32,000 bases of DNA from contig JAPLKZ010000006.1 of assembly GCA_026387835.1 (NCBI GenBank), positions 1 to 32,000 of the forward strand. The letters run 5' to 3'. The DNA is from Candidatus Saganbacteria bacterium. Its GTDB lineage: Bacteria; Margulisbacteria; WOR-1; JAKLHX01. The notes below the pieces were generated by a model. That model was given only the letters and a program-made list of their open reading frames with translations, was not told the DNA's origin and made no database searches. Of the stretch, positions 651 through 24,247 are shown piece by piece. A program made the translations under genes and the position numbers. How positions within the stretch are numbered: position 1 is the stretch's first letter; every line of letters starts with the position of its first letter.

Positions 651-2440
651 TAAAACGTACAAGGAACTGCGGCGATCTGAAAAAAGGCGATATCGATAAA
701 GAGATAACCATCAACGGCTGGGTGCACAGAAGGAGAGACCACGGGAACCTGATATTTTTAGATATCCGGGACCGCTCCGGCATAGTCCAGGTCGTGGTGG
801 ATTCCGACAAAAAAAATATCCATGCTGTAGCGGAAAAAATAAGGCCCGAGTTTGTTATCGCGGTCAAAGGCGTCATCAAAGCCCGTTCTTCCCAGTCAGT
901 CAATAAAAATATCCCGACAGGCGAGATCGAAGTTATACCTTCGGACATAGAGATTTTGAACACAGCCAAGACCCCTGCTTTTGAAATAGCCGATGCAATC
1001 CAGCCGGTGGATGAGAATACCAGATTGAAATACCGCTACCTCGACCTGCGGAAAGACTTCATGAAAGATAATCTGGTCTTAAGGCACAGGATATTAAAAG
1101 CGGCTTCTGATTTTCTTGACACCGAAGGTTTCCTTGCTATAGAGACCCCTTTTCTCGGGAAGAGCACCCCCGAGGGGGCCAGGGATTATCTCGTCCCGTC
1201 CCGGGTAAATCCCGGCAAGTTCTATGCGCTCCCGCAGTCACCCCAGTTATATAAGCAGATCCTCATGATCTCCGGGCTCGAAAAATATTACCAGATAGCC
1301 AGGTGTTTTAGGGATGAGGACCTGAGGGCGGACAGGCAGCCGGAGTTCACTCAGATAGACCTTGAGATGTCGTTCGTCGATGCGGAAGACGTCCTTTCTC
1401 TCACCGAACGGATGGTCTTTCATATCATTGATACTCTTAAAAAGACCGGTTATAGAAATAAAGACTTTCCTGACGTGAAACTTCCGCTCCCGAGGATGTC
1501 GTATAAAGAAGCTATGGACAGATTTGGCAATGATAAGCCGGATACGAGATTCGGTCTTGAGCTGGTCGATGTTTCAGATATCGCAAAGGATTCCGAGTTT
1601 AAAGTCTTTTCCGGTGCGGTAAGATCCGGAGGGGTCGTCAAATGCATCAATATCGAAGGCGGAGGAAAATTCTCGAGGAGCGAGATAACCGCTCTTGAAG
1701 AGGAAGCAAAGACATGCGGCGCAAAAGGGCTGGCATGGATCGTAATAGGAGAAGAGGACTCGAAAGGACCTATCGCAAAGTTCCTTAAGCCGGAAGAGGT
1801 AGAGGCTATTAAAAACAAGGCAAAAGCAAAGGTGGGAGATCTATTGATATTTGTTGCGGATACTTACCATATGGCTTGCAGTGTCCTGAGCTCGATAAGG
1901 CTCAGCCTCGGCAAAAAACTTGCGCTCATAGACCCGAAAAAGTTCAGCTTCCTCTGGGTAGTCGATTTTCCGCTGTTCGAGTACAGCGAGACAGAAAAAA
2001 GATGGTCATCGCGGCATCACCCGTTCACTTCTCCTGACGGAGACCTTGACGCTCTCGAAGAGAGATATAAAAAAGACCCGGGAGGGGTCGGGGCAAAAGC
2101 TTACGATATTGTTTTGAACGGCGTCGAACTAGGCGGCGGCAGCATCAGGATCCACAGGAGCGATATCCAGCATAAGATATTCAATATTCTTGGCCTGCCA
2201 GAGCAACTGACACGCCTGCAGTTCGGTTTTTTCCTTGACGCACTAGAATACGGCGCGCCCCCGCACGGAGGAATAGCTCTCGGTGTCGACAGGTTCGTGA
2301 TGATGCTAGTGGGTGCTGAATCAATAAGGGACGTCATTGCATTTCCGAAGACACAATCGGCTTATTGCCCGCTTTCGGAAGCTCCGTCAGAGGTTGACAC
2401 GAAGCAGCTGAAAGAGTTGCACATAAAACCGGCATTATGA
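647..2440 (+). CDS. aspS: Aspartate--tRNA ligase (bacterial type, 597 aa)
   Basis: N-terminal OB-fold ([27 protein letters not shown]), QSPQLYKQ, motif 2 [26 protein letters not shown], and motif 3 GIALGVDR. Confidence 0.95.
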
Positions 2441-3123
2441 AAAGATTAATATTTATTTTACCTGTTTTTATTTTTCTTGTGCTCTCCTCTGGCTGCGGGA
2501 AGAGCCCTGTAGGGGTTGTCCCGGAATCCGCGACGCCGGCTTTGTCTTCTTCGCTGTCCGCGGTCGTTCCGGCTAAAAGCTCAAAAGTATCTGGCAGGAT
2601 TATTCTTTCAGACAGCGAAATGGCAAAGATGAAGCCTGTGTCGGGAGAGGCCGTGCTTTGTTCTCTGGAAGCAAAGGGCGGTTTTGCCGTCACGACTGTT
2701 GCGACATCCCTGGCGGCGGACGCTTCTTATATCCTTTATATAAGTCCGGAAGCTGTAGACAGGCTTTATTTCGTGAGGGTCACTATGGCGGCAAGTAAAG
2801 AATCTCTCATAATATTCGCCCCAGTATATATAAAAAAAGAAGTGACTTCAGAAGTGGTCGCTGATGTTTCTTCCGCGACCACATATTTTTCGCTCATGCT
2901 GTCGGATATTGTGAAAAACAATGAAAAATTAATGATAAACCCTAAGATCATAGAAAATAAAAAACCGGCGATGCTCAAAGAACTGAAAAAGCATGTCCCG
3001 TTGACCGGCGGGACTGAACAGGACCCTTTATATGTACGTTTAAAGGCCTCTCTTATTGATTTGCTGACCGCTTCGGCTGAATCCGCGGCGACGATACCTT
3101 CTAAGGAAGCAACCGGACCTTAA
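2437..3123 (+). CDS. Hypothetical lipoprotein
   Basis: N-terminal hydrophobic signal peptide ending in a lipobox-like LSSGC. The start overlaps the aspS stop (ATGA). No family was recognised. Confidence 0.6.
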
Positions 3124-3186: not shown

Positions 3187-5206
<2,020 letters not shown>

Positions 5207-5210
<4 letters not shown>

Positions 5211-5761
5211 AATGTAAATTCATCAACAAGCAGATCGATTACACAGGCGAACAGTTGAGGCCGCATTATATCTATGAGAATTTCGATCTGGAAGGTGATG
5301 CTATAATCTCGTTCACGGGAAAATGCGAAGTCAAACAGCATATGGTAGACCTTGCTGACAGCAAAAAGAAAGAATTCATCCGCAGCTCCCTGATGCTCCA
5401 TTTTCTTGCCGAGCATTTCGATAATGACCTGGAAAAGACGATCCTAAGGAAAAGGCTGCTGATATCCATTATCATGGAAGAAACCCACAGGATGGCCGGA
5501 AAGCTGATATTTCTCAGGAAAGATAACGGCTTATACCAAAAGGACAGAAAATTGACCGTGGCAGTTGCGACAGCTTCAAATGTCTCGACACTGATCCACG
5601 CCGGGGTAAATATTTCTTCAAAGGACACCCCGGTAAAGACAGCAAGTCTTAGCGAGTACGGGATCGACCCGAAAAAACTCGGGGAGCGAGTGATAAAAAA
5701 GTACATTGATGAAATGCGCTCGATCATGGCGTCAAGAGCGAAAGTGAAAGGTGTCAGATGA
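5207..5761 (+). CDS. Hypothetical protein, 184 aa (family not confidently recognised; possibly a DUF366/COG2029-type protein)
   Basis: Clean ORF with 4-nt overlaps to queC upstream and amj downstream. No catalytic motif was recognised by eye. Confidence 0.55.
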
Positions 5762-6576
5762 ACGCCCTTGTATTTGTCTGCATATTTACCGGTCTGATAC
5801 ATTTTTTTGAGACGCTGTCATCATCCATGAGGCTGGCCGGGGTAAGGACAAAGCAGATAGCGACTTCGCTGGCTTTTGTCAACACGGCTTTTTTGATAGC
5901 AAGGATGTCTAACATGCTCCAGGCCCCGCTTCTCGGCGGCATGGTGGACATGGCGATACTCAACAACAATCCGGGAGACCTTGCCAATAAATTCAGGATA
6001 GTCATCTTCTGCGCTTTTATAGGGAACGTGGCAGGCGCTTTATTGATCCCGTTTTTCGTCAATATCTTCGAGGAAGCCATCTATATCTTCGAAAGAAAAG
6101 GTTCCATCCCAAAACTGATGGCCGAATCTCTAAAACCAAGAAATATAAAAAAGGTCATCAGATCTTTCAGGCTGCCGGACGCGGGTTCTTTCAGTAATAT
6201 ATCTTTAAAGAACATATCTCCCACATTCCTGATCCTTAATTTCTTTATGGTATCGATATATGCCATAGGCGTCCTTTCGTCACTGTTCGCGGGAGCGCAG
6301 GTGCCGGAGTTCAGGACCACGGCATCCCAGCTGTCCGGTATAGTCAACGGCATGGCCACGATATTGCTTGCTCTGATGGTCGACCCGACCTGCGCGTTCA
6401 TAACCGACCAGGCGGTAAGGGGCAAAAGGAGCGAGAACGACGTGCGTTCAATGGTGTTCTATATTGTCTTGGGCAGGATACTGGGGACGCTTATCTTATC
6501 ACAACTGTTATTCTGGCCGGCCTCCGAATACATTAAAAATACAACAATGTTCGTTAAATCAATGTTTGTGCGATGA
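5758..6576 (+). CDS. amj: Lipid II flippase Amj-like membrane protein (DUF2837 family)
   Basis: The protein is 272 aa and polytopic. Its N-terminus (LIHFFETLSSSMRLAGVRT), NMLQAPLLG and C-terminal VDP..AFITDQAVRGKR resemble my recollection of B. subtilis Amj/YdaH. Confidence 0.7.
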   Translation: MNALVFVCIFTGLIHFFETLSSSMRLAGVRTKQIATSLAFVNTAFLIARMSNMLQAPLLGGMVDMAILNNNPGDLANKFRIVIFCAFIGNVAGALLIPFFVNIFEEAIYIFERKGSIPKLMAESLKPRNIKKVIRSFRLPDAGSFSNISLKNISPTFLILNFFMVSIYAIGVLSSLFAGAQVPEFRTTASQLSGIVNGMATILLALMVDPTCAFITDQAVRGKRSENDVRSMVFYIVLGRILGTLILSQLLFWPASEYIKNTTMFVKSMFVR

Positions 6577-7490
6577 AGACGACAAAAGACCTGAAAAATT
6601 TCAAAGAAAGCTCCTCAGTTGTCGCTATCGGCACTTTTGACGGTTTTCATCTCGGCCATAAAAAAGTCATAGCCTCGGCGGTCGCTTTCGCAAAGGCGAA
6701 AAAACTTCCCTCGGTTGTGCTCACCTTTGATCCGCACCCGCAAAAAGCGCTTCACCCCGGCAGGCAGATAAAGATGCTTTCCACGGCAGATGAAAGAGCC
6801 TGCCTGGTCGAAGCCCTGTCTCCGGATCATTTTGTGGTGGCAAAGTTCGACAGGAACTTCAGCAGCATGAATTATAAAAAATTCGTAAATGATATCCTTC
6901 TCAAAAAATTGAAGGTAAAGCATATCTTTGTGGGAAAAGATTATGTTTTCGGCAGGGGAAAAGAAGGGAACCTGTCTAAATTAAAAAAACTCGGAAAAGA
7001 ATTCGGGTTCAGCGTCACGGGCGTCACGGACAAAAAAGAAGCGGGAAGGGTCGTAAAAAGCACCTTGATAAGGCATCTTATAGAAAAAGGCGAATTCTCT
7101 CATGCTTTGAACCTTCTGGGGCATCCTTATCTTATCTGCGGGAAAGTCATTTCCGGAAGAGGGAGAGGAGCTCTTTTGGGATATCCTACGGCTAATGTGG
7201 CGGTCGGGCCTGAGAAGCTTGTCCCGTGTGACGGTGTCTACGCCTGTCATGTCATGATAAATGGCAAAAAATACAAAGGGGCCGTTAATATCGGCAGGCG
7301 CCCGACCTTCATTGAGAAAGACAGGACGATAGAGGTCTTTATCCTGAACTTCAGGTCAGATATCAGGGGAAAGAAACTCCGCCTTTTTCTTGAGAAGAGG
7401 CTCCGGTCCGAAAAAAAGTTCAATAATGTAAAGACTTTGATCAGGGCTATAGGGCATGATGCCAAGATTGCGGAAAGAATCCTTGTGTGA
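6573..7490 (+). CDS. ribF: Bifunctional riboflavin kinase / FMN adenylyltransferase
   Basis: N-terminal GTFDGFHLGH nucleotidyltransferase motif and a C-terminal riboflavin kinase region (GYPTANV, NIGRRPTF, EVFILNF). Length is 305 aa. Confidence 0.9.
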   Translation: MKTTKDLKNFKESSSVVAIGTFDGFHLGHKKVIASAVAFAKAKKLPSVVLTFDPHPQKALHPGRQIKMLSTADERACLVEALSPDHFVVAKFDRNFSSMNYKKFVNDILLKKLKVKHIFVGKDYVFGRGKEGNLSKLKKLGKEFGFSVTGVTDKKEAGRVVKSTLIRHLIEKGEFSHALNLLGHPYLICGKVISGRGRGALLGYPTANVAVGPEKLVPCDGVYACHVMINGKKYKGAVNIGRRPTFIEKDRTIEVFILNFRSDIRGKKLRLFLEKRLRSEKKFNNVKTLIRAIGHDAKIAERILV

Positions 7491-7515: not shown

Positions 7516-7776
7516 ATGAGGACAGAAGAGAAAAAAGCGGTAATTGACAGCAGCAAGATCAACGAAAAAGACTGCGGTTCGGCCGATGTGCAGATAGCCC
7601 TGCTGACCAAAAGAATAGCCGAGCTTTCCGGCCATCTTTCCACTCACCTAAAAGACCATCACACGCGGCACGGGCTGCTGCTCATGGTCGGAAAAAGGAA
7701 AAGGCTTATCAGCTATCTCAAAAGGACCGAACCCAAAAGGTACGCTAAACTTGCCGGAAATCTGGGAATTAAATGA
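7516..7776 (+). CDS. rpsO: 30S ribosomal protein S15
   Basis: The sequence from M21 of the tracked ORF gives an 86-aa S15-like protein (GSADVQIALLT.RI..L..HL..H.KDHH.R.GLL..V.KR..LL.YL). AAGGAAG lies 6 nt upstream of the ATG at 7516. The longer tracked start at 7456 overlaps ribF and is unlikely. Confidence 0.92.
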   Translation: MRTEEKKAVIDSSKINEKDCGSADVQIALLTKRIAELSGHLSTHLKDHHTRHGLLLMVGKRKRLISYLKRTEPKRYAKLAGNLGIK

Positions 7777-9866
7777 TCCACGAATCAAGTATCGAGCTTT
7801 CGGGCCGCAACCTCAAGTTTGAAACAGGCAAATTAGCCCAGCAGGCTTCAGGTTCCGTCGTAGTGCGTTTCGGAGATACCGTCCTCATAGCCACAGCCAC
7901 TGTCTCGGAAAAGATCCGCAAAGACATTGATTATTTTCCTCTGGTAGTTGATTACGAAGAAAAGATGTACGCTGTCGGGAAGATCCCCGGAGGCTTTTTC
8001 AAGCGCGAGGGCAGGCCTACCGAAAAGGCGATCCTAACCTCAAGGCTGATAGACCGGCCGATAAGGCCGCTGTTCCCCGACGGTTTCAAGAACGATGTTC
8101 AGATCGTCGTCACTCCGCTTTCTGTGGATGAGAGCAATCCGCCCGATGTCATAGCAATAATCGCGGCGTCCGCGGCTATTTCTATCTCAGAGATACCATT
8201 TCAGGGGCCGATCGGAGCGGTGAGAGTGGCGCGTATTGACGGGAAATTCATCGCGTATCCGACGAACGAAGAAATGGAAAAAAGCGACCTTGACCTGGTA
8301 TTCGCGGGTGACAGGGAAGAGATCTCCATGATAGAGGCAAAGGGAGACGAGATCCCCGAAGCGGTCGTAATAGACGCGATAAAATTCGGCCATAAATATA
8401 TCAACCAGGTGATCGACTTCCAGGAAGAATTCAAGAAAAAGGCCGGGGTCCCGGTGATGCAGTTCAAAGTCACAATGCCTGACGAAAAACTCGAGGCTTA
8501 TGTCGTTAAGGAAGCGACCGGAAAAATAAAAGAAGCGCTTTATATCACCAATAATGAAAAACAAAAGGACAGGCTTGCGGTGATTGAGAACGAGCTGGTG
8601 GAAAAAATAAAAGACGGCCCGGACGAGCATCTTAAAACGGTCATAAAAGAAAAGGTGTCCGACCTGTACGCGATAATGAAATCAATAGAGAAAAAACTTG
8701 TCCGCCATATGATAATCAACGAGGATAAAAGGCCGGACGGCAGAAAGATGGATGAGGTAAGGCCGGTCACCTGCGAGATAGGCATCCTTCCGAGGGCGCA
8801 CGGGTCCGCGGTCTTTACGAGGGGCATGACGCAGGCCCTGACGGTAGTTACTCTTGGAGCAAAAGGCGACGCGCAGATAATCGACGGCCTTGACGCGGAA
8901 AAAAGCGAAAAGTGCTTCATGCACCATTACAATATGCCTGCTTACAGCGTAGGAGAGGTAAGGCCTCTCAGAGGCCCCGGAAGGCGCGAGATCGGGCACG
9001 GGGCTTTAGCCGAAAAAGCACTTCTGCCGGTAATACCGCCTGAAGAAGAGTTCCCTTATACTATAAGGCTCGTCTCGGAAATTCTAGGTTCCAACGGTTC
9101 ATCTTCGATGGCCTCTACATGCGGAAGCTCTCTTGCTTTGATGGACGCCGGAGCGCCGATCAAAGCGGCTGTATCCGGAATAGCCATGGGACTTGTGACA
9201 GAGGGCAAAAAGTTCAAGATACTGACAGATCTCCAGGGGCTCGAGGATTTTCTCGGCGATATGGACTTTAAGATAGCCGGGTCCGCGAGAGGGATAACTG
9301 CCATCCAGCTTGACACAAAGATAAAAGGGCTTTCTATGGAGATAGTCGAAAAGACTTTCGCCCAGGCAAAAACGGGCCGCGACTTTATATTAAATAAAAT
9401 GCTCGAAGCGATCTCATCACCGAGAAAAGATCTTTCCGAGTTCGCGCCGAGGGTCATCTCCTTCTCGATCAATACCGAGAAGATCGGCATGGTGATCGGA
9501 CCGGGCGGAAAGAACATCAAAAAGATAATCGAAGACACTAAATGCCAGATAGACATCGAGGACGACGGCAGGGTGTTCATCACCTCGGTAGATGCCGCGA
9601 TGGCCAGAGAAGCCAAAGCGCGCATCGACGAGATAGCGATGGACGCGGAAATCGGCAAGGTCTATCACGGCGAGGTCGTAAAGATCATGAATTTCGGGGC
9701 TTTTGTCGAGATACTTCCCGGAAAAGACGGGATGGTCCATATCTCAAAACTCGCGAACCGCAGGGTGAATAAAGTGGAAGATGTGGTGAGCGTCGGCGAT
9801 AAAGTCGATGTCAGGGTGACCGAGATAGATGCCCAGGGCCGGATCAACCTCACGATGGTGATTTAG
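7773..9866 (+). CDS. pnp: Polyribonucleotide nucleotidyltransferase (PNPase)
   Basis: The protein is 697 aa. It has two RNase PH domains, a KH domain (GPGGKNIKKI) and a C-terminal S1 domain (GEVVKIMNFGAFVEILPGKDGMVHIS). ATGA overlap with rpsO. Confidence 0.95.
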   Translation: MIHESSIELSGRNLKFETGKLAQQASGSVVVRFGDTVLIATATVSEKIRKDIDYFPLVVDYEEKMYAVGKIPGGFFKREGRPTEKAILTSRLIDRPIRPLFPDGFKNDVQIVVTPLSVDESNPPDVIAIIAASAAISISEIPFQGPIGAVRVARIDGKFIAYPTNEEMEKSDLDLVFAGDREEISMIEAKGDEIPEAVVIDAIKFGHKYINQVIDFQEEFKKKAGVPVMQFKVTMPDEKLEAYVVKEATGKIKEALYITNNEKQKDRLAVIENELVEKIKDGPDEHLKTVIKEKVSDLYAIMKSIEKKLVRHMIINEDKRPDGRKMDEVRPVTCEIGILPRAHGSAVFTRGMTQALTVVTLGAKGDAQIIDGLDAEKSEKCFMHHYNMPAYSVGEVRPLRGPGRREIGHGALAEKALLPVIPPEEEFPYTIRLVSEILGSNGSSSMASTCGSSLALMDAGAPIKAAVSGIAMGLVTEGKKFKILTDLQGLEDFLGDMDFKIAGSARGITAIQLDTKIKGLSMEIVEKTFAQAKTGRDFILNKMLEAISSPRKDLSEFAPRVISFSINTEKIGMVIGPGGKNIKKIIEDTKCQIDIEDDGRVFITSVDAAMAREAKARIDEIAMDAEIGKVYHGEVVKIMNFGAFVEILPGKDGMVHISKLANRRVNKVEDVVSVGDKVDVRVTEIDAQGRINLTMVI
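9795..9866 (+). repeat. Direct repeat copy 1 (functional 3' end of pnp, last 23 codons plus stop)
   Basis: By manual alignment, 66 of 72 nt are identical to 10912-10983. Confidence 0.85.
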
Positions 9867-9898
9867 CTCACAAAGTTTTATGCCAGACAGTCTTATCC

Positions 9899-10753
9899 TT
9901 AATCTGTTATTACAGGATATATTTTTTTGGTGACCATTACAGCACTGATCGAACCAATAGGTATTTCATGTTTTGCTTGTCCGTTCCGTCCGGTAGTTAC
10001 AAAAGCTTTATCTGCAATAAACCCTAAATCAGTAGTTGGCCAAAATCCGAGGCTGTCAACCCAGCGGCCTTCGTTTATGGTGTCAGTAAATCTGTGTGAA
10101 TCTACCATAGAGAACCTTCTGGCTTCATAAGTGCTTCTCCTCGTTGCTATGTTCAAGCCCATGACCATATATTTGTCTGATAAAGCAAGAAGCTTTCTTG
10201 CTATCGCGGGTGTCACAAGTGCACGTCCCCTGGACGCCTGTTGAACGGCGGTAGGTTTATGAGCGACAGGAACCTGTAATGAATGATCCAAGACGTGAGG
10301 CATACGATAAGCCATGTCGTTCAGCCACCAGAAGATCCTGTTCAGCATGTGGCTGTTAAGATCGTTCAGGTCTTCCATTGTCCTTCCGCAAGTGGGCCAG
10401 CCAATCCCTCCTGTAGCATATTCCCCCATCTCATGGGCAGAGAACATCGCTATCATGTCCTGCACGGATAATATTGTTCTGTTACCGAATGAGACGAGCA
10501 GATTTTCCTTTCCTCTTTCCACTCTCGCGGCCCCGGCCAGAAAAGCAAGCTGGGCATTCCTAAAACCATCACATCCGTTGGGCAGGTGTTCAGGGCCGAG
10601 CACCGTTGTTTCCGGCGTCACAGGCCTTTCGTTAAGCCCAAGGTATACGCGTCCTCTTACGTCTGTCAGCCTGTGCAAAGTCTCCGCGGCCCTTGTGATA
10701 TGCGGCAGGTGCTTTATCGATCCTGCGACAGCAAGAGTTGGTCTGGTAGACAT
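9899..10753 (-). CDS. Hypothetical protein A, 284 aa, unrecognised family
   Basis: ATG start preceded by AAAGGAGAA. Codon usage is host-like. There is no signal peptide or TM segment. The gene is convergent with pnp, with a 32-nt gap. It appears to be a remote paralogue of the next gene (colinear anchors TLAVAG..H, SAHEMGE, EGRW...PT). Confidence 0.7.
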   Translation of the reverse strand: MSTRPTLAVAGSIKHLPHITRAAETLHRLTDVRGRVYLGLNERPVTPETTVLGPEHLPNGCDGFRNAQLAFLAGAARVERGKENLLVSFGNRTILSVQDMIAMFSAHEMGEYATGGIGWPTCGRTMEDLNDLNSHMLNRIFWWLNDMAYRMPHVLDHSLQVPVAHKPTAVQQASRGRALVTPAIARKLLALSDKYMVMGLNIATRRSTYEARRFSMVDSHRFTDTINEGRWVDSLGFWPTTDLGFIADKAFVTTGRNGQAKHEIPIGSISAVMVTKKIYPVITD

Positions 10754-10816
10754 ATTATGTATTCTCCTTTAAATATAGTAAAATCGTCTCTGATTAGTTA
10801 TCGGCAATTCATCAGA

Positions 10817-10865
10817 GAAATTTCAGCCAATTTTATAAATCTTTAACAGCATCATTTTTGCACAA
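10817..10865 (-). promoter_or_regulatory. Conserved upstream blocks of gene A (27-nt block plus 12-nt block)
   Basis: GAAATTTCAGCCAATTTTATAAATCTT (10817-10843) matches 11964-11990 at 24/27 nt. ATTTTTGCACAA (10854-10865) is identical to 12022-12033. The block contains the 8-bp palindromes GAAATTTC and TTTATAAA. On the minus strand it lies 63 nt upstream of the gene A ATG and includes a TATAAA(A)T -10-like box. Confidence 0.45.
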
Positions 10866-10911
10866 TACTTTCTTAAAAAAGCCGAAAAAAGCTGCAAACT
10901 TAAAGAACATT

Positions 10912-10983
10912 GGCGATAAAGTCGATGTCAGAGTGACCGAGATAGACGCCCAGGGCCGGATCAAGATCACGATGGTGATATAA
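10912..10983 (+). pseudogene. Orphan copy of the pnp 3' end (23 codons plus stop, no upstream coding context)
   Basis: It translates in frame as GDKVDVRVTEIDAQGRIKITMVI*, against GDKVDVRVTEIDAQGRINLTMVI* at the real pnp end. There are 6 substitutions in 72 nt, mostly synonymous or conservative. Similarity stops abruptly at 10911/10912. Confidence 0.8.
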
Positions 10984-10998
10984 GAAGTTAAACGCTAA

Positions 10999-11014
10999 TC
11001 CGCCAGCTGGCGGA
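10999..11014. terminator. Perfect 16-nt palindrome TCCGCCAGCTGGCGGA between the orphan pnp tail and the 3' end of gene B; putative bidirectional terminator
   Basis: GC-rich stem seen directly. On the minus strand it is followed by TTAGCGTTTAAC and preceded by TTTTGAGTTTTAG. There is no clean U-tract, so the call is tentative. Confidence 0.4.
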
Positions 11015-11036
11015 CTAAAACTCAAAAGTTAATAAT

Positions 11037-11867
11037 CTAATCGCCGAACTGCAGTTTGCCCGTGATAAGGTTGAACAGTCCGAAAACACCGCCCAGATTG
11101 TAAAATCTATCAATATCTGAGGTTGACAGGTATAAAAGTGCTGTAGGCACGTCGAACCTCTCCATCAGGCCTGTCCATCTTTCTTCTCCATGGACTTCCT
11201 GAAAAAGCGAGACCCCACGGATAAAGACCTGAAGCGGCAACTGTTTTCCGTCAGTCACTCCTACATGGAGAGAATGGCTTTTGTGTTCTTCATGTTCAAT
11301 TTTAGAATATTCTGTATCCAGCGCCAATGACAGGCCGATCGCGTTTGCTATAAGGTCCTGATGTCTGGTTATCATCCCTTGACCCGTATCAAAATGGAAC
11401 CAGTTAGCTGTGTTTTGGTCTACGTCCCTTCCTTTAATAATATTTAATGTTGGTCGCAAAAGCGATTGTCTCGCAGATTGTTCCATAGTACCCAGCAGGG
11501 CCATACCAAATGCTACGGGCATTAGCTCGTGCGCCAGAACTCCTGAGATCTTTTCCGGATGCACGCTTCCATCATTCAAAGCCTCTGATATATGTATCGG
11601 TGATGCCATGCATGCGAACGCAACTATATCGGTGTTATAGGAAGGGCCATTAAATGAGGATTTTCTTCTACTTGGATCGAAGCTGTTTAGCACCGTTCTG
11701 ATGATATCCGGGCGTTTTGCCTTATTATCATGATCAAAATATGTCTCAAGAGCTTTGATGCCCACTCTGTTTTTATTAATGCGGATAAAATTCCCAAATC
11801 CGGCTGCGTTCCCCAGCTTAACATGCGTCGCCATAGGATTTTCTGCCGCGACTATACTTGTTGCCAT
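11037..11867 (-). CDS. Hypothetical protein B, 276 aa, unrecognised family (remote paralogue of protein A)
   Basis: The ATG at 11867 lies 8 nt downstream of AAGGAGG. The tracked TTG at 11873 is too close to the SD. There is no signal peptide or TM segment. Anchors TSIVAA..H, LAHELM and EERW...PT are colinear with protein A. Confidence 0.7.
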   Translation of the reverse strand: MATSIVAAENPMATHVKLGNAAGFGNFIRINKNRVGIKALETYFDHDNKAKRPDIIRTVLNSFDPSRRKSSFNGPSYNTDIVAFACMASPIHISEALNDGSVHPEKISGVLAHELMPVAFGMALLGTMEQSARQSLLRPTLNIIKGRDVDQNTANWFHFDTGQGMITRHQDLIANAIGLSLALDTEYSKIEHEEHKSHSLHVGVTDGKQLPLQVFIRGVSLFQEVHGEERWTGLMERFDVPTALLYLSTSDIDRFYNLGGVFGLFNLITGKLQFGD

Positions 11868-11963
11868 GATCAAATCCTCCTTTGTAATTTCATCTTAATT
11901 CGAACTGGGCCTCTGAATAATTAGGCTTTTTTCACCTCAATTATCTATCGTTAACTCCTTGCC

Positions 11964-12033
11964 GAAATTTCACGCATTTTTATAAATCTTCATGTAAAGA
12001 CCGGAAGATTTCCAAAATATTATTTTTGCACAA
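11964..12033 (-). promoter_or_regulatory. Conserved upstream blocks of gene B (same two blocks as upstream of gene A, wider spacing)
   Basis: GAAATTTCACGCATTTTTATAAATCTT lies at 11964-11990 and ATTTTTGCACAA at 12022-12033. The blocks are 31 nt apart here and 10 nt apart upstream of gene A. The 12-nt block also supplies the -35 of the divergent purL promoter. Confidence 0.45.
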
Positions 12034-12054
12034 CTGCCGTTAAAATGATAAAAT
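12026..12054 (+). promoter_or_regulatory. Putative sigma-70 type promoter of purL: TTGCAC-N17-TAAAAT
   Basis: TTGCAC lies at 12026-12031, followed by a 17-nt spacer and TAAAAT at 12049-12054. purL follows a strand switch, so it needs its own promoter in this 190-nt gap. Confidence 0.4.
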
Positions 12055-12063
12055 AAAGTTGAA

Positions 12064-14295
12064 ATGGACGAAAAAATCGTTGCCGAACACGGTCTCAGCA
12101 AAGAAGAATTCAATAAAATAAAGACGATCCTCGGAAGAGAGCCCAATATCGTAGAACTGGGAATGTACAGCGTCCTCTGGAGCGAGCACTGCTCATATAA
12201 GAGCTCTAAAATATACCTCAAGCAATTTCCCACAAAAGGGCCGCATATTCTTCAGGGGCCGGGAGAAAATGCGGGGATAATCGATATCGGCGACGGTTAC
12301 GCGATCACTATGAAGATAGAATCCCACAATCATCCCAGCCAGGTGGAACCTTTCCAGGGCGCGGCGACAGGAGTAGGAGGGATAGTCAGGGATGTTTTTA
12401 CGATGGGAGCCAGGCCGATAGCCTCATTAAATTCACTCAGGTTCGGTCCGCTTTCGGAACCACATAATAGATATCTGTTCGATGGTGTAGTGGCCGGCAT
12501 TTCTTCCTACGGGAATTGTCTGGGGCTGCCGACAGTCGCGGGAGAGGTCTATTTTGACCCTTCATATAGCGGGAATTGCCTGGTGAATGCGATGTGTGTG
12601 GGGATAGTAAAAATCCAAAATAAATCCAAAACTCAAAATCCAAATGAAGAATCGGAAATACCCGATGTGATAGTAAAGGCAAAAGCAGAAGGAATAGGAA
12701 ACCCGGTACTTTATGTGGGCTCTTCGACCGGACGGGACGGGATACACGGGGCGACGTTCGCATCGGTGGAGTTGAATGAGGATTCTACCGAGAGAAGGTC
12801 CAATGTCCAGGTAGGCGACCCTTTCACGGAAAAATTATTGATCGAAGCCTGTCTTGAGCTTCTCAAGACCGGCAATGTCATCGGCATGCAGGACATGGGC
12901 GCGGCAGGGATGACTTCCTCAACATCCGAAATGTCTTCCAGGGGAGGATGCGGGATGGAGATCGATATTTCCAGGGTCCCCCAGAGAGAAGAGGCCATGA
13001 CCCCTTACGAGATAATGCTTTCCGAATCGCAGGAAAGAATGGTCGTCGTGATGAAAAAAGGGACAGAAGACGATGCCTTCAGGATATTCAAAAAATGGGG
13101 GCTTAACGCCGTCGTAATGGGAAAAGTTACGGATGACGGGAGCCTGACGATAAAGGTCAAGGACAAGGTGGTCGCGCAGGTCCCTGCGCGCTCCCTTGCG
13201 GATGATGCGCCAGTTTATGAGAGACCTGTTGAGCAAATCCTAAATCCCCTTCGACTCCGCTCAGGGCAAGCGAAATCCGAAATTCGAAACAAATCCAAAA
13301 TAATAAATTCAAAATCCGGATATAATAAACACCTGTTATCGCTTTTATCTGATCCTAATATTGCGAGCAAGGCGTGGGTCTATGAGCAGTATGACCATAT
13401 GGTCCAAACGAATACTTCCGTGCTTCCGGGCAAAGGTGACGCGGCGGTGCTCCGGATAAAAGGGACCGATAAGATGATCGCGCTCACCACGGACGGTAAC
13501 GGCAGATACTGCTATTTTGATCCCTATAAAGGCGGGATGATAGCTGTTGCCGAAGCGGCAAGGAACCTTGTCTGTGTCGGAGCCAAGCCGATGGCGGTGA
13601 CCGACTGCCTCAATTTCGGGAACCCTGAAAAACCGCAGATAATGCAGCAGTTTAAGCTTTGCGTGAAGGGGCTGGCTGACGCGTGCAGGGCCTTTGAAAC
13701 GCCTGTCGTGTCGGGGAATGTAAGCTTTTACAACGAGACTGACAAAGCCGCCATTTATCCGACGCCCGTCATAGGGATGCTTGGCAGAATAGACAAAAAC
13801 GCGTGCTGCGATATGGCTTTCAGGGATAATGGAGACATCATCGTGCTTTTGGGGGTCAATAAAGAGGAACAGGGAGAGTGCCCTGACATCGACATAGAAC
13901 TTGAAAAAAGCGTGCAAAAAACAGCGTATGAAGCTATAAAGATCGGCGCCGTAAAAAGCGCCCACGATACTTCGGAAGGCGGCCTTGCCGCGGCTCTTTC
14001 CGAATGCTGCATAGAGGGCGGCAGGGGAGCGGTGGTAACGTTTGACGAAAAAATTGACAACGGGTCTCTTCTATTTGACGAGACACAGTCCAGGATAATC
14101 CTGACGATAGATCCTTCCCAGATATTCGTCCTAAATGATATCGCGATGCTTAACAAGACCCCTGTCGATATCATAGGAAAGGTCTCGGGAAAAAGCCTGA
14201 AGATCAGTAACGGAAAGAAAAAGCTCATCGACATGCCGGTCAACAGACTTTCCACTGCATATAAGAGCGCAATTTCCGATATAATGGGAGCTTAA
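12064..14295 (+). CDS. purL: Phosphoribosylformylglycinamidine synthase subunit PurL (FGAM synthase II)
   Basis: The protein is 743 aa. It contains [66 protein letters not shown] and a duplicated AIR-synthase-like half. It also contains two unusual low-complexity patches (see findings). Confidence 0.93.
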
Positions 14296-23671: not shown

Positions 23672-24247
23672 CTATTTATTAAGGAGCTTCTTTAATTTAT
23701 GCGTAGCTGTCTTGCAGATCCTGCTGACCTGGGATTCAGAAAGGTCTATTTCTTTTCCAATCTCTTTAAAGGTCTTATCGTCCTGATAGTACCCTACGAT
23801 CACGGCCCTTTCATTATCCGACAGGTCCTTTAAGGCGCTGTCGATCTGCGTGGCGATCTCGGTAGATTCACTGTGAGCAAGCTCCTTGTTGAAGGCGAGA
23901 TAGACATTTGCCGCCTGGGTCACCCATTCGTAGATGCCGGTAACGGGGTCAGTGCCTCTTTTCCTCAGGTAATCCTGCATGGACCCTTTGAGGCGTATGC
24001 TCACATAAGGCCAAAGATCCCCTTTGCGCGGGTCCCAGGTCTTTAACGCGTCAACAAAAGCCATCTTAGCTTCCGAAATAAGGTCATCAGCTTCGTTCCT
24101 GGCTACATTATGAGGAAGGTTGCTGATATACCATTTTACGGTGGAATCTATCTGGCTCTTGTACTTTTCTACTACCTCGTCAGAATATTTCAAAAAATGC
24201 TGGCGTAGCAGCTGAACTATCCTGTCTTCGGAATCCTTGTCAGACAT
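23672..24247 (-). CDS. fliA: Sigma-70 family sigma factor, short (191 aa); FliA/sigma-28-like by position at the end of the flagellar operon
   Basis: It has a region 2 (DDLISEAKMAFVDALKTWDPRKG..WPYVSIRLKGSMQDYLRK) and a region 4 HTH (LSDNERAVIVGYYQDDKTFKEIGKEIDLSESQVSRICKTATHKLKKLL). No obvious region 3 is present. The fliA symbol rests mainly on genomic context. Confidence 0.6.
   Translation of the reverse strand: MSDKDSEDRIVQLLRQHFLKYSDEVVEKYKSQIDSTVKWYISNLPHNVARNEADDLISEAKMAFVDALKTWDPRKGDLWPYVSIRLKGSMQDYLRKRGTDPVTGIYEWVTQAANVYLAFNKELAHSESTEIATQIDSALKDLSDNERAVIVGYYQDDKTFKEIGKEIDLSESQVSRICKTATHKLKKLLNK

Follow-up and report, generated by a model that had tools for sequence, protein, structure and literature searches.

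A doubled pnp–purL interval with two unrelated genes in a Candidatus Saganbacteria genome

Why should the last 72 nt of a core gene stand a second time 1.05 kb downstream, with a gene of the opposite strand in between? The gene is pnp, in a 32,000-nt stretch of DNA (the window) from the Candidatus Saganbacteria assembly GCA_026387835.1 (contig JAPLKZ010000006.1). A preliminary description of the window took the repeat for the brackets of a one-gene cassette, which it does enclose, but understated a second repeat lying beyond the genes (families D2 and D19). With both repeats considered, the pnp–purL interval consists of two consecutive copies, head to tail, each with a different uncharacterised gene (A and B, in units A and B, respectively), and is a recombination scar that is genuine, though of a rather ordinary sort. 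The left part of the doubled frame comprises the pnp tail and about 15 nt behind it:

7773–9866, plus strand: pnp (PNPase, 697 aa), full-length and intact; Pfam RNase_PH (twice), PNPase, KH, and S1
9795–9866, plus strand: tail copy 1, functional, comprising the final 23 codons of pnp and its stop (GDKVDVRVTEIDAQGRINLTMVI, stop)
9867–9881, plus strand: post-stop string CTCACAAAGTTTTAT, left frame of unit A; counterpart at 11021–11036
10912–10983, plus strand: tail copy 2, a relic pnp 3′ fragment (…GRIKITMVI, stop)
11021–11036, plus strand: post-stop string CTCAAAAGTTAATAAT, left frame of unit B; counterpart at 9867–9881

The pnp product is 100% identical to an NCBI Ca. Saganbacteria PNPase. Direct reading and the repeat search (family D1) agree that the two tails are identical at 66/72 nt, with frame and stop codon kept, and the six differences, at 9815, 9830, 9848/9849, 9863, and 9866, are exactly those listed earlier: AGG>AGA, GAT>GAC, AAC>AAG, CTC>ATC, ATT>ATA, and TAG>TAA. 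The abrupt start of similarity is equally real, with high identity from GGCGATAAAG onwards and matches at 15/28 of the preceding positions (own count), and so is the resemblance of the strings behind the two stop codons.

Five of the six differences fall at third codon positions and four are synonymous, an outcome (at least four synonymous) with a probability of 0.012–0.048 under random mutation. The sole non-synonymous event, CC>GA in copy 2, turns NL into KI, residues that are conserved in nearly all PNPases among the homologues listed; the conserved GR(I/V)NL motif is thus absent from copy 2 (GRIKI), while copy 1 and nearly all of those homologues carry NL. Copy 1 also has AGG, GAT, and AACCTC (NL) in common with a 90% relative (L088). 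Copy 2 holds the derived state at 4/4 polarisable sites, including NL>KI, and is therefore a decaying relic. The synonymous excess (p about 0.01–0.05, six sites), in turn, argues that the tails diverged for the most part when each still served as a pnp end, which suggests that both would once have been functional ends in two lineages; alternatively, the bias could stem from selection on a 41-aa open reading frame (ORF) containing copy 2. As for the proposal that the downstream tail is the ancestral pnp end, its derived states fit a displaced end, but do not prove that it was the resident one.

On the right, the doubled frame takes in the entire purL-upstream region, together with a purL promoter copy that has decayed:

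10826–10865, unstranded: right frame of unit A, with homology to the purL-upstream region (D2, D19, and gapped alignment); holds the AAGATTTATAAAA block
10875–10894, plus strand: 10-nt tandem duplication AAAAAAGCCG / AAAAAAGCTG, by reading against the intact promoter at 12026–12054
10911–10912, unstranded: novel junction at which pnp codon 675 (GGCGATAAAG…) follows directly on the end of the purL-upstream copy (…AAAGAACATT)
11973–12063, unstranded: resident purL-upstream region, which forms the right frame of unit B
12064–14295, plus strand: purL (FGAM synthase II, 743 aa); Pfam AIRS, AIRS_C, and FGAR-AT_linker

In the repeat search, the tail, the post-stop string, and the upstream blocks all recur at a spacing of 1117–1168 nt. 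Positions 10793–10843 match 11940–11990 at 75% over 51 nt (D2) and 10851–10865 match 12019–12033 at 93% (D19), and identity between the two frame copies reaches about 86%–92% in the best blocks. The intact purL promoter, TTGCAC-N17-TAAAAT at 12026–12054, has a −10 element that ends 9 nt before the ATG, a geometry found also in L088 and in a further relative, L089. Its relic in unit A retains the −35 element TTGCAC (10858–10863, within the right frame), has lost the −10 element, and has gained the 10-nt duplication, which, lying inside the promoter spacer, reads as a sign of decay. The upstream copy of unit A aligns with the unit B upstream region as far as the purL ATG, that is, to the junction, and homology to the resident purL-upstream region covers the distal 120 nt of the insert. 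Because the insert carries this chromosomal sequence right up to the junction, the whole frame from pnp tail to purL start has been doubled. A free cassette was thus not captured.

At the junction itself only GG is certain as microhomology, and none beyond it is significant. A pairing of the purL start with the start of the pnp tail scored 8 at the real site and 10–11 at other pnp positions and is not claimed, and the best pnp match to the end of the unit B upstream region (AATAAAGTGGAA at 9768, which is 27 nt away from the junction) had a score reached by 18/60 shuffles. An Rfam search of 9600–12300 returned a single sub-threshold chance match only.

Between these homologous flanks lie two genes on the minus strand, each with its own predicted promoter:

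9899–10753, minus strand: gene A (284 aa, NTZ10_02335 / MCX5749071.1), with a strong AAGGAG ribosome-binding site
10798–10825, minus strand: gene A promoter, sigma-28 (FliA)-type, tGAAAT-N14-GCCGATAA
10995–11018, minus strand: GC-rich hairpin, core palindrome 10999–11014, T-run on the minus strand
11037–11867, minus strand: gene B (276 aa from ATG, NTZ10_02345 / MCX5749073.1), with an AAGGAGG ribosome-binding site
11946–11972, minus strand: gene B promoter, sigma-28-type, TGAAAT-N16-CGATA, −10 region AACGATAG

The products of A and B had been described as diverged almost beyond recognition, which implies a common origin that comparison does not bear out: a BLASTP search gives E = 1.2, their similarity does not rise above shuffled controls (z<0), and a profile of 13 aligned remote relatives of A against B yields an hhalign probability of 0.1%. 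The idea that they are diverged paralogues was dropped on these grounds, and A and B are best treated as unrelated. Homology between the two units stops within the promoter spacer (5/13 positions identical, own count), and the 5′ untranslated regions (5′UTRs) of A and B are dissimilar. Gene A, for which 14 remote homologues were identified (E 2e-9 to 3e-4) and no match in Pfam, PDB, PADLOC, PHROGs, or NCBIfam, is a member of a small undescribed family, whose members elsewhere are single chromosomal genes not adjoining pnp; the unannotated neighbour of one of them (in L096) is similar to neither A nor B. Gene B, with no family match in Pfam, NCBIfam, PHROGs, or PADLOC, is an ORFan. Structure models predicted without alignments had a mean pLDDT of 30 and 32 for A and B, respectively, and were unusable. 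Within the window, GC3 is lowest and codon fit weakest in these two genes.

The sigma-28 consensus comprises a −35 element TCTAAAG and a −10 element GCCGATAA, offset by 19 nt start to start (PMC12784957). The −10 element of gene A is GCCGATAA exactly and that of gene B is AACGATAG, with TTCGATAG, TTCGATAT, and GACGATAG in genes of L088 and ATCGATAA in another genome, L094. GAAAT, which equals the −35 TAAAG at 3/5 positions, lies exactly 19 nt upstream in seven sites matching TGAAAT-N16-CGATA, and a CGACA variant in L095 has the identical spacing. An ECF-sigma reading of the motif was abandoned in favour of sigma-28, since the −10 element is GCCGATAA and the geometry fits. Genes A and B both lie behind predicted FliA-type promoters, a type carried also by A-family members in other genomes, and this provides a first functional hint for both uncharacterised proteins. 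A 191-aa sigma factor adjoining flhA is closest to FliA/WhiG, scoring 81.8 bits against a curated cutoff of 189.6.

The pnp–purL gap is a variable slot. Upstream synteny (purA-queC-DUF366-amj-ribF-rpsO-pnp) is kept across the clade, and nearly every relative has different content behind pnp: purL follows pnp directly in two 77% relatives, an AAA ATPase and an AlaDh-like gene occupy the gap in L088, and other genes follow pnp in L090, L091, and L093. A PNPase search of genome contigs brought up only 51%–57% relatives among the matches listed. In this, the locus resembles the variable hotspots (islets) found between core genes, with conserved upstream synteny and changing content, but differs in having two occupants at once, plus the scar of their joining. 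No copy of the pnp tail was found in L088 or L089. The competence genes comEA and comEC are located 3 kb downstream.

How, then, did one slot come to hold two genes? On balance, we lean towards two diverged versions of the slot having been joined in tandem by unequal, illegitimate recombination. The slot would extend from 72 nt inside the pnp end to the purL start codon, its cargo in this lineage being a minus-strand gene with a sigma-28-type promoter, and the two parental versions would have been pnp-A-purL and pnp-B-purL. The joining may have followed DNA uptake from a related strain or recombination between co-resident copies. A crossover would then have linked the A version, at its purL-start end, with the B version, at a position 72 nt ahead of its pnp stop, leaving the upstream tail attached to pnp and functional, and the downstream tail and extra purL promoter useless and free to decay. 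Homologous flanks around non-homologous genes fit the exchange or merger through conserved flanks that was proposed earlier. The earlier view that this is not a simple old tandem duplication is supported as well.

Both the recombination route and the origin of the units in two lineages, rather than by duplication in place, are what we infer from this arrangement. Neither an A-only nor a B-only haplotype was found in the per-run contigs or metagenome scans, and the two parental versions are hence hypothetical; a scan of metagenomes with the frame block gave 0 matches, and one with a 26-mer from the tail gave a single match, to a distant PNPase encoding the same conserved peptide. The purL-promoter relic, with its indels and lost −10 element, looks more decayed than the tail relic, which could mean that the event is older than the tail suggests.

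Homology-facilitated illegitimate recombination in natural transformation, which brings in foreign DNA beside a homologous anchor, has been described for Acinetobacter, Pseudomonas stutzeri, and pneumococcus. The pnp–purL locus is similar in having a one-sided anchor (pnp) and an illegitimate joint with minimal microhomology, with comEA and comEC nearby; it differs in that recipient sequence was duplicated rather than replaced, and both uptake and donor are hypothetical. The locus offers a clean, datable scar of how a variable slot beside a core gene gains two unrelated genes in an uncultured phylum, and opens no new class of mechanism.

A possible, though less probable, alternative is that the whole slot was duplicated in place and one cargo was then replaced, through the conserved flanks, by an unrelated gene driven by sigma-28. 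Such a duplication predicts the identical doubled frame and novel junction, and accommodates the strong decay of the purL-promoter relic. Both genes sit in homologous flanks whose homology ends at a common −35 element, TGAAATTTC, which could have acted as the crossover point for a gene with its own promoter of the same class. Tandem segmental duplications formed by illegitimate recombination likewise show two head-to-tail copies of a frame with one novel end-to-start junction and a truncated, decaying gene fragment at that junction, here of the purL start with the pnp interior. Their interiors, however, are not unrelated as they are here (A, B, 5′UTRs, and promoter spacers), and thus the locus is either no plain duplication of one sequence or one in which replacement followed. 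Duplication in place requires two events rather than one, an intermediate in which both copies are alike is not known, and decay of a redundant tail predicts changes at all codon positions, against the 4/5 events that are synonymous.

A further reading concerns the gap as a whole. It might be a recombinase-free expression slot in which unrelated genes of the sigma-28 (late flagellar) regulon replace one another or accumulate through recombination, the two sites being the −35 element common to the promoters (TGAAATTTC) and the pnp tail, and the tandem would be an intermediate caught in passing. We consider this unlikely; if true, the A and B tandem would represent an intermediate of recurrent cargo exchange in Saganbacteria and Margulisiibacteriota. 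Integron cassette arrays likewise consist of tandem one-gene units in the same orientation; here, however, each unit has its own promoter. The repeat search detected no attC-like inverted repeats bracketing the units, and no integrase domain was present among the scanned window ORFs of at least 150 aa.

Very improbable is the notion that a small integrative or mobilisable element with gene A as its cargo targeted the pnp 3′ end and brought a replacement tail, the old tail being left as the distal repeat. A one-gene insert bracketed by direct repeats that derive from the 3′ end of the target gene, a proximal copy that restores the intact gene, and the abrupt start of similarity would all be expected of it, and islands at the 3′ ends of tRNA, tmRNA, and protein genes share the flanking repeats (here 66/72) and the proximal copy that keeps the gene intact. 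The repeat search and the Pfam, NCBIfam, PHROGs, and PADLOC searches gave no integrase, transposase, or bracketing inverted repeat, in agreement with the earlier description; without a recombinase, with A and B lacking matches in those four databases, and with pnp and purL as neighbours, the locus departs from such islands. Moreover, at its far end the insert copies resident chromosomal sequence including the purL promoter, which a foreign element would not carry. The pnp site shows no recurrence in relatives, those with other cargo there (L088 and L089 checked) being without the tail repeat, and homologues of A elsewhere are lone chromosomal genes away from pnp.

Nor is it at all likely that the second tail was retained for a function, as a 41-aa protein or as part of the gene B 3′ region. 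Copy 2 lies within an ORF at 10858–10983 that NCBI annotates as a coding sequence for the hypothetical protein NTZ10_02340 (MCX5749072.1); frame and stop codon are kept and 4/6 differences are synonymous. No Shine-Dalgarno sequence was seen on reading the sequence before the TTG start, however, which itself lies inside the decayed promoter copy; the near-universal NL is altered, and six substitutions in 72 nt would probably leave the frame open by chance. To our knowledge, 23 residues of an S1 domain are also unable to fold alone. NTZ10_02340 is thus a pnp fragment and not a gene, which corrects its public annotation. The perfect 16-nt palindrome TCCGCCAGCTGGCGGA at 10999–11014 does stand behind copy 2 only, as had been observed; with its T-run on the minus strand, the hairpin looks like a terminator of gene B, and probably is one, rather than the pnp terminator it had been taken for.

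The structure was sought in per-run Logan contigs from runs ERR15302166 to ERR15302224, with 11 contigs read each for A and B. Twelve loci from at least seven per-run contigs were 100% identical to the window, with no mismatch, and five of the seven first-retrieved loci cover 9500–12200 unbroken, spanning both junctions. That the assembly merged two strain haplotypes of a single locus into a tandem, a chimera to which a metagenome-assembled genome and two units resembling alleles might incline one, is contradicted by these contigs and is the least likely explanation of all, as the junction at 10911/10912 is novel sequence that must be present in reads and exact matches between the tail copies do not exceed 20 nt, so that k=31 graphs are unable to cross-link them. 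Judged from assemblies, the structure is no chimera. Contig breaks in ERR15302198 were considered as signs of strain variants and set aside: the two contigs overlap by 5 nt only, and contig ends are scattered across runs, a pattern of fragmentation.

The locus belongs to a Candidatus Saganbacteria metagenome-assembled genome, in which the gene order is rpsO-pnp-gene A-gene B-purL:

7773-9866, plus strand, pnp
9899-10753, minus strand, gene A (284 aa; NTZ10_02335)
11037-11867, minus strand, gene B (276 aa; NTZ10_02345)
12064-14295, plus strand, purL

The arrangement is real and reproducible: a variable slot has been doubled specifically in this lineage, and a dead piece of pnp remains as the scar. 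The end of pnp (9795-9866) recurs at 10912-10983 with 66 of 72 positions identical; the six differences, frame, and stop codon are as reported in the preliminary description, as are the perfect palindrome at 10999-11014, present after the second tail only, and the CTCA(C)AAAGTT string after both tails. A second repeat pair, which that description understated, lies beyond each gene: 10793-10843 matches 11940-11990 at 75%, and a further block, 10851-10865, matches 12019-12033 at 93%. Gapped alignment shows that the sequence upstream of gene A (10754-10911) duplicates, up to the junction, the resident purL-upstream region, which also serves as the upstream region of gene B. The repeated frame thus extends from the last 72 nt of pnp to the purL start codon, and 10911/10912 is the novel end-to-start junction. 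The certain shared sequence at this crossover is GG only, and neither of two tests for longer microhomology was significant.

Polarity is given by the 90%-identical PNPase locus L088, taken as outgroup. At each of the four sites that can be polarised (AGG, GAT, AAC, and CTC), the first tail matches the outgroup, and the second tail reads KI in place of the NL of GRINL, conserved in nearly all PNPases listed; hence, the second tail (10912-10983) is a relic. The earlier reading of this region as the ancestral end plus pnp terminator is unproven: the T-run of the hairpin that follows is on the minus strand, which makes it a better fit as a terminator of gene B than of pnp. The relic lies inside a 41-aa ORF (10858-10983, plus strand) with a TTG start, before which no ribosome-binding site is seen. 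NCBI lists this ORF as hypothetical protein NTZ10_02340 (MCX5749072.1), almost certainly a mis-annotation: it consists of the dead pnp tail joined to a degraded copy of the purL promoter. That copy holds the purL -35 (TTGCAC, 10858-10863); its -10 is gone, and 10 nt have been duplicated in tandem at 10875-10894. The intact purL promoter (12026-12054) stops 9 nt short of the ATG, a geometry common to two relatives. In all three genomes (window 12026-12066; L088 ~13130-13165; L089, another relative, ~9205-9240), exactly 9 nt separate the end of the -10 (TAAAAT, preceded by TG) from the ATG, leaving no space for a Shine-Dalgarno sequence, and the purL mRNA is thus probably leaderless.

Five of the six tail differences fall at third codon positions. 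Four of the six are synonymous, and the remaining two occupy neighbouring positions (CC>GA), perhaps representing a single event. The probability of at least four synonymous changes under random mutation is 0.012-0.048, varying with transition bias and with whether the pair is counted once. Across these six sites, the pattern bears the signature of purifying selection, suggesting that each tail formed the end of a functional pnp gene while most of the divergence built up, i.e., in two different genomes; the NL>KI change alone would post-date the merger of two locus versions. The synonymous excess makes such a merger preferable to duplication in place followed by cargo replacement, the rival that purifying selection on both tails counts against; that argument draws on only six sites, however, and the purL-promoter relic is more heavily decayed, which pulls against a merger. 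The preliminary interpretation is supported in part, namely for cassette exchange or merger through conserved flanks. The merger would have occurred by illegitimate or unequal recombination at a hotspot—a mechanism class already known—possibly after DNA uptake; comEA and comEC, a further clue to origin, lie 3 kb downstream.

The other proposal, a chimeric assembly, is very unlikely, judged from assembled contigs: proteins A and B were each traced on 11 contigs, every one from a sequencing run that had been assembled separately; 12 fetched loci, from at least seven distinct contigs, show zero mismatches to the window (longest match, 12.8 kb); 9500-12200 is continuous in five of the first seven loci retrieved; the longest exact run common to both tails is at most 20 nt, too short to mislead a k=31 graph; and contig ends are scattered.

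The purA-queC-DUF366-amj-ribF-rpsO-pnp block is kept in every relative examined, and gene content after pnp varies. In two 77% relatives, purL follows directly; the 90% relative has an 874-aa AAA ATPase and an AlaDh-like gene between pnp and purL; others carry a patatin and GHMP kinase, a 5939-aa protein, or a racemase after pnp. The pnp-tail copy is absent from the relatives examined, and the collections searched hold neither a closer relative nor an A-only or B-only version. L088 also carries a diversity-generating retroelement between ribF and rpsO (4187-6614; FGE-sulfatase-fold target, bAvd, reverse transcriptase, and small ORF); its absence from the window makes this another variable site within that conserved block.

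The two cargo genes had been described as highly diverged, a view that is not supported. Their proteins align at a BLASTP E-value of 1.2, with scores below shuffled controls, and each matches only itself in a search of 5.8 billion sequences. An exhaustive HMMER search finds 14 remote relatives of protein A (E-values 2e-9 to 3e-4), all of 272-318 aa except one of 1206 aa. A profile built from the other 13, aligned without the 1206-aa protein, does not match B (probability 0.1%), nor anything in Pfam or any solved structure. On the promoter side, unit homology stops inside the promoter spacer (5 of 13 positions identical by our own count), and the 5′UTRs are unlike in length and sequence. The two units share a conserved frame around non-homologous contents, and their cargo genes are unrelated. 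GC3 is the lowest in the window (A, 0.48; B, 0.45) and codon-usage fit the weakest, as could be the case for genes that were acquired or are weakly expressed. Gene A falls in a small, so far undescribed, family of ~270-320 aa (P0123-P0136; no match found in Pfam or PDB), with conserved motifs including EHIP, RD.VLGFLA, RL.WFL.D, GRV.V.P, and T.A..PEI; in a Margulisiibacteriota MAG, one member occurs singly, flanked by a PHP-domain gene and miaA.

The upstream repeat has a conserved core, TGAAATTTY-N13-CGATA. Published sigma-28 (FliA) elements (-35 TCTAAAG, -10 GCCGATAA) have the same 19-nt offset as the gene A motif (PMC12784957). Sites of the sigma-28/FliA type, TGAAAT-N16-CGATA, each upstream of its gene and directed toward it, are as follows:

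10798-10825, minus strand, gene A (GAAAT-N14-GCCGATAA)
11946-11972, minus strand, gene B
L088 4077-4103 (plus strand), 11764-11790, and 11799-11825
L093 (a relative) 1224-1250, oriented toward a TPR gene
L094 (another genome) 1050-1076, oriented toward an A-family homologue

Those in L088 precede, and are oriented toward, the AAA ATPase, the AlaDh-like gene, and the retroelement target gene; the A-family homologue in L095 has a CGACA variant. The window also encodes flhA, flhB, fliR, fliP, and a FliM/N-like protein. Adjoining flhA/flhB/fliR/fliP is a 191-aa sigma factor (23672-24247, minus strand) with regions 2 and 4 only, which is closest to FliA/WhiG, far under that family's curated cutoff, and may be a minimal FliA. 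On sequence grounds alone, A and B are inferred to be part of a FliA-type regulon, and the spread of the motif suggests that Saganbacteria and Margulisiibacteriota have such a regulon with unusual members.

Elsewhere, the rpsO frame overlaps the pnp start (ATGA, 7773-7776), as in relatives, and hence there is no rpsO-pnp leader of the kind used in E. coli for pnp autoregulation. Convergent pnp and gene A have 32 nt between stop codons (9864-9901) and no terminator-like site or hairpin there; antisense overlap of their transcripts would be expected. A 16-nt inverted match (94%) between the pnp body (9276-9291) and gene A (10522-10537) is probably chance. Between aspS and purA lies a 228-aa protein (2437-3123, plus strand) with no Pfam match.
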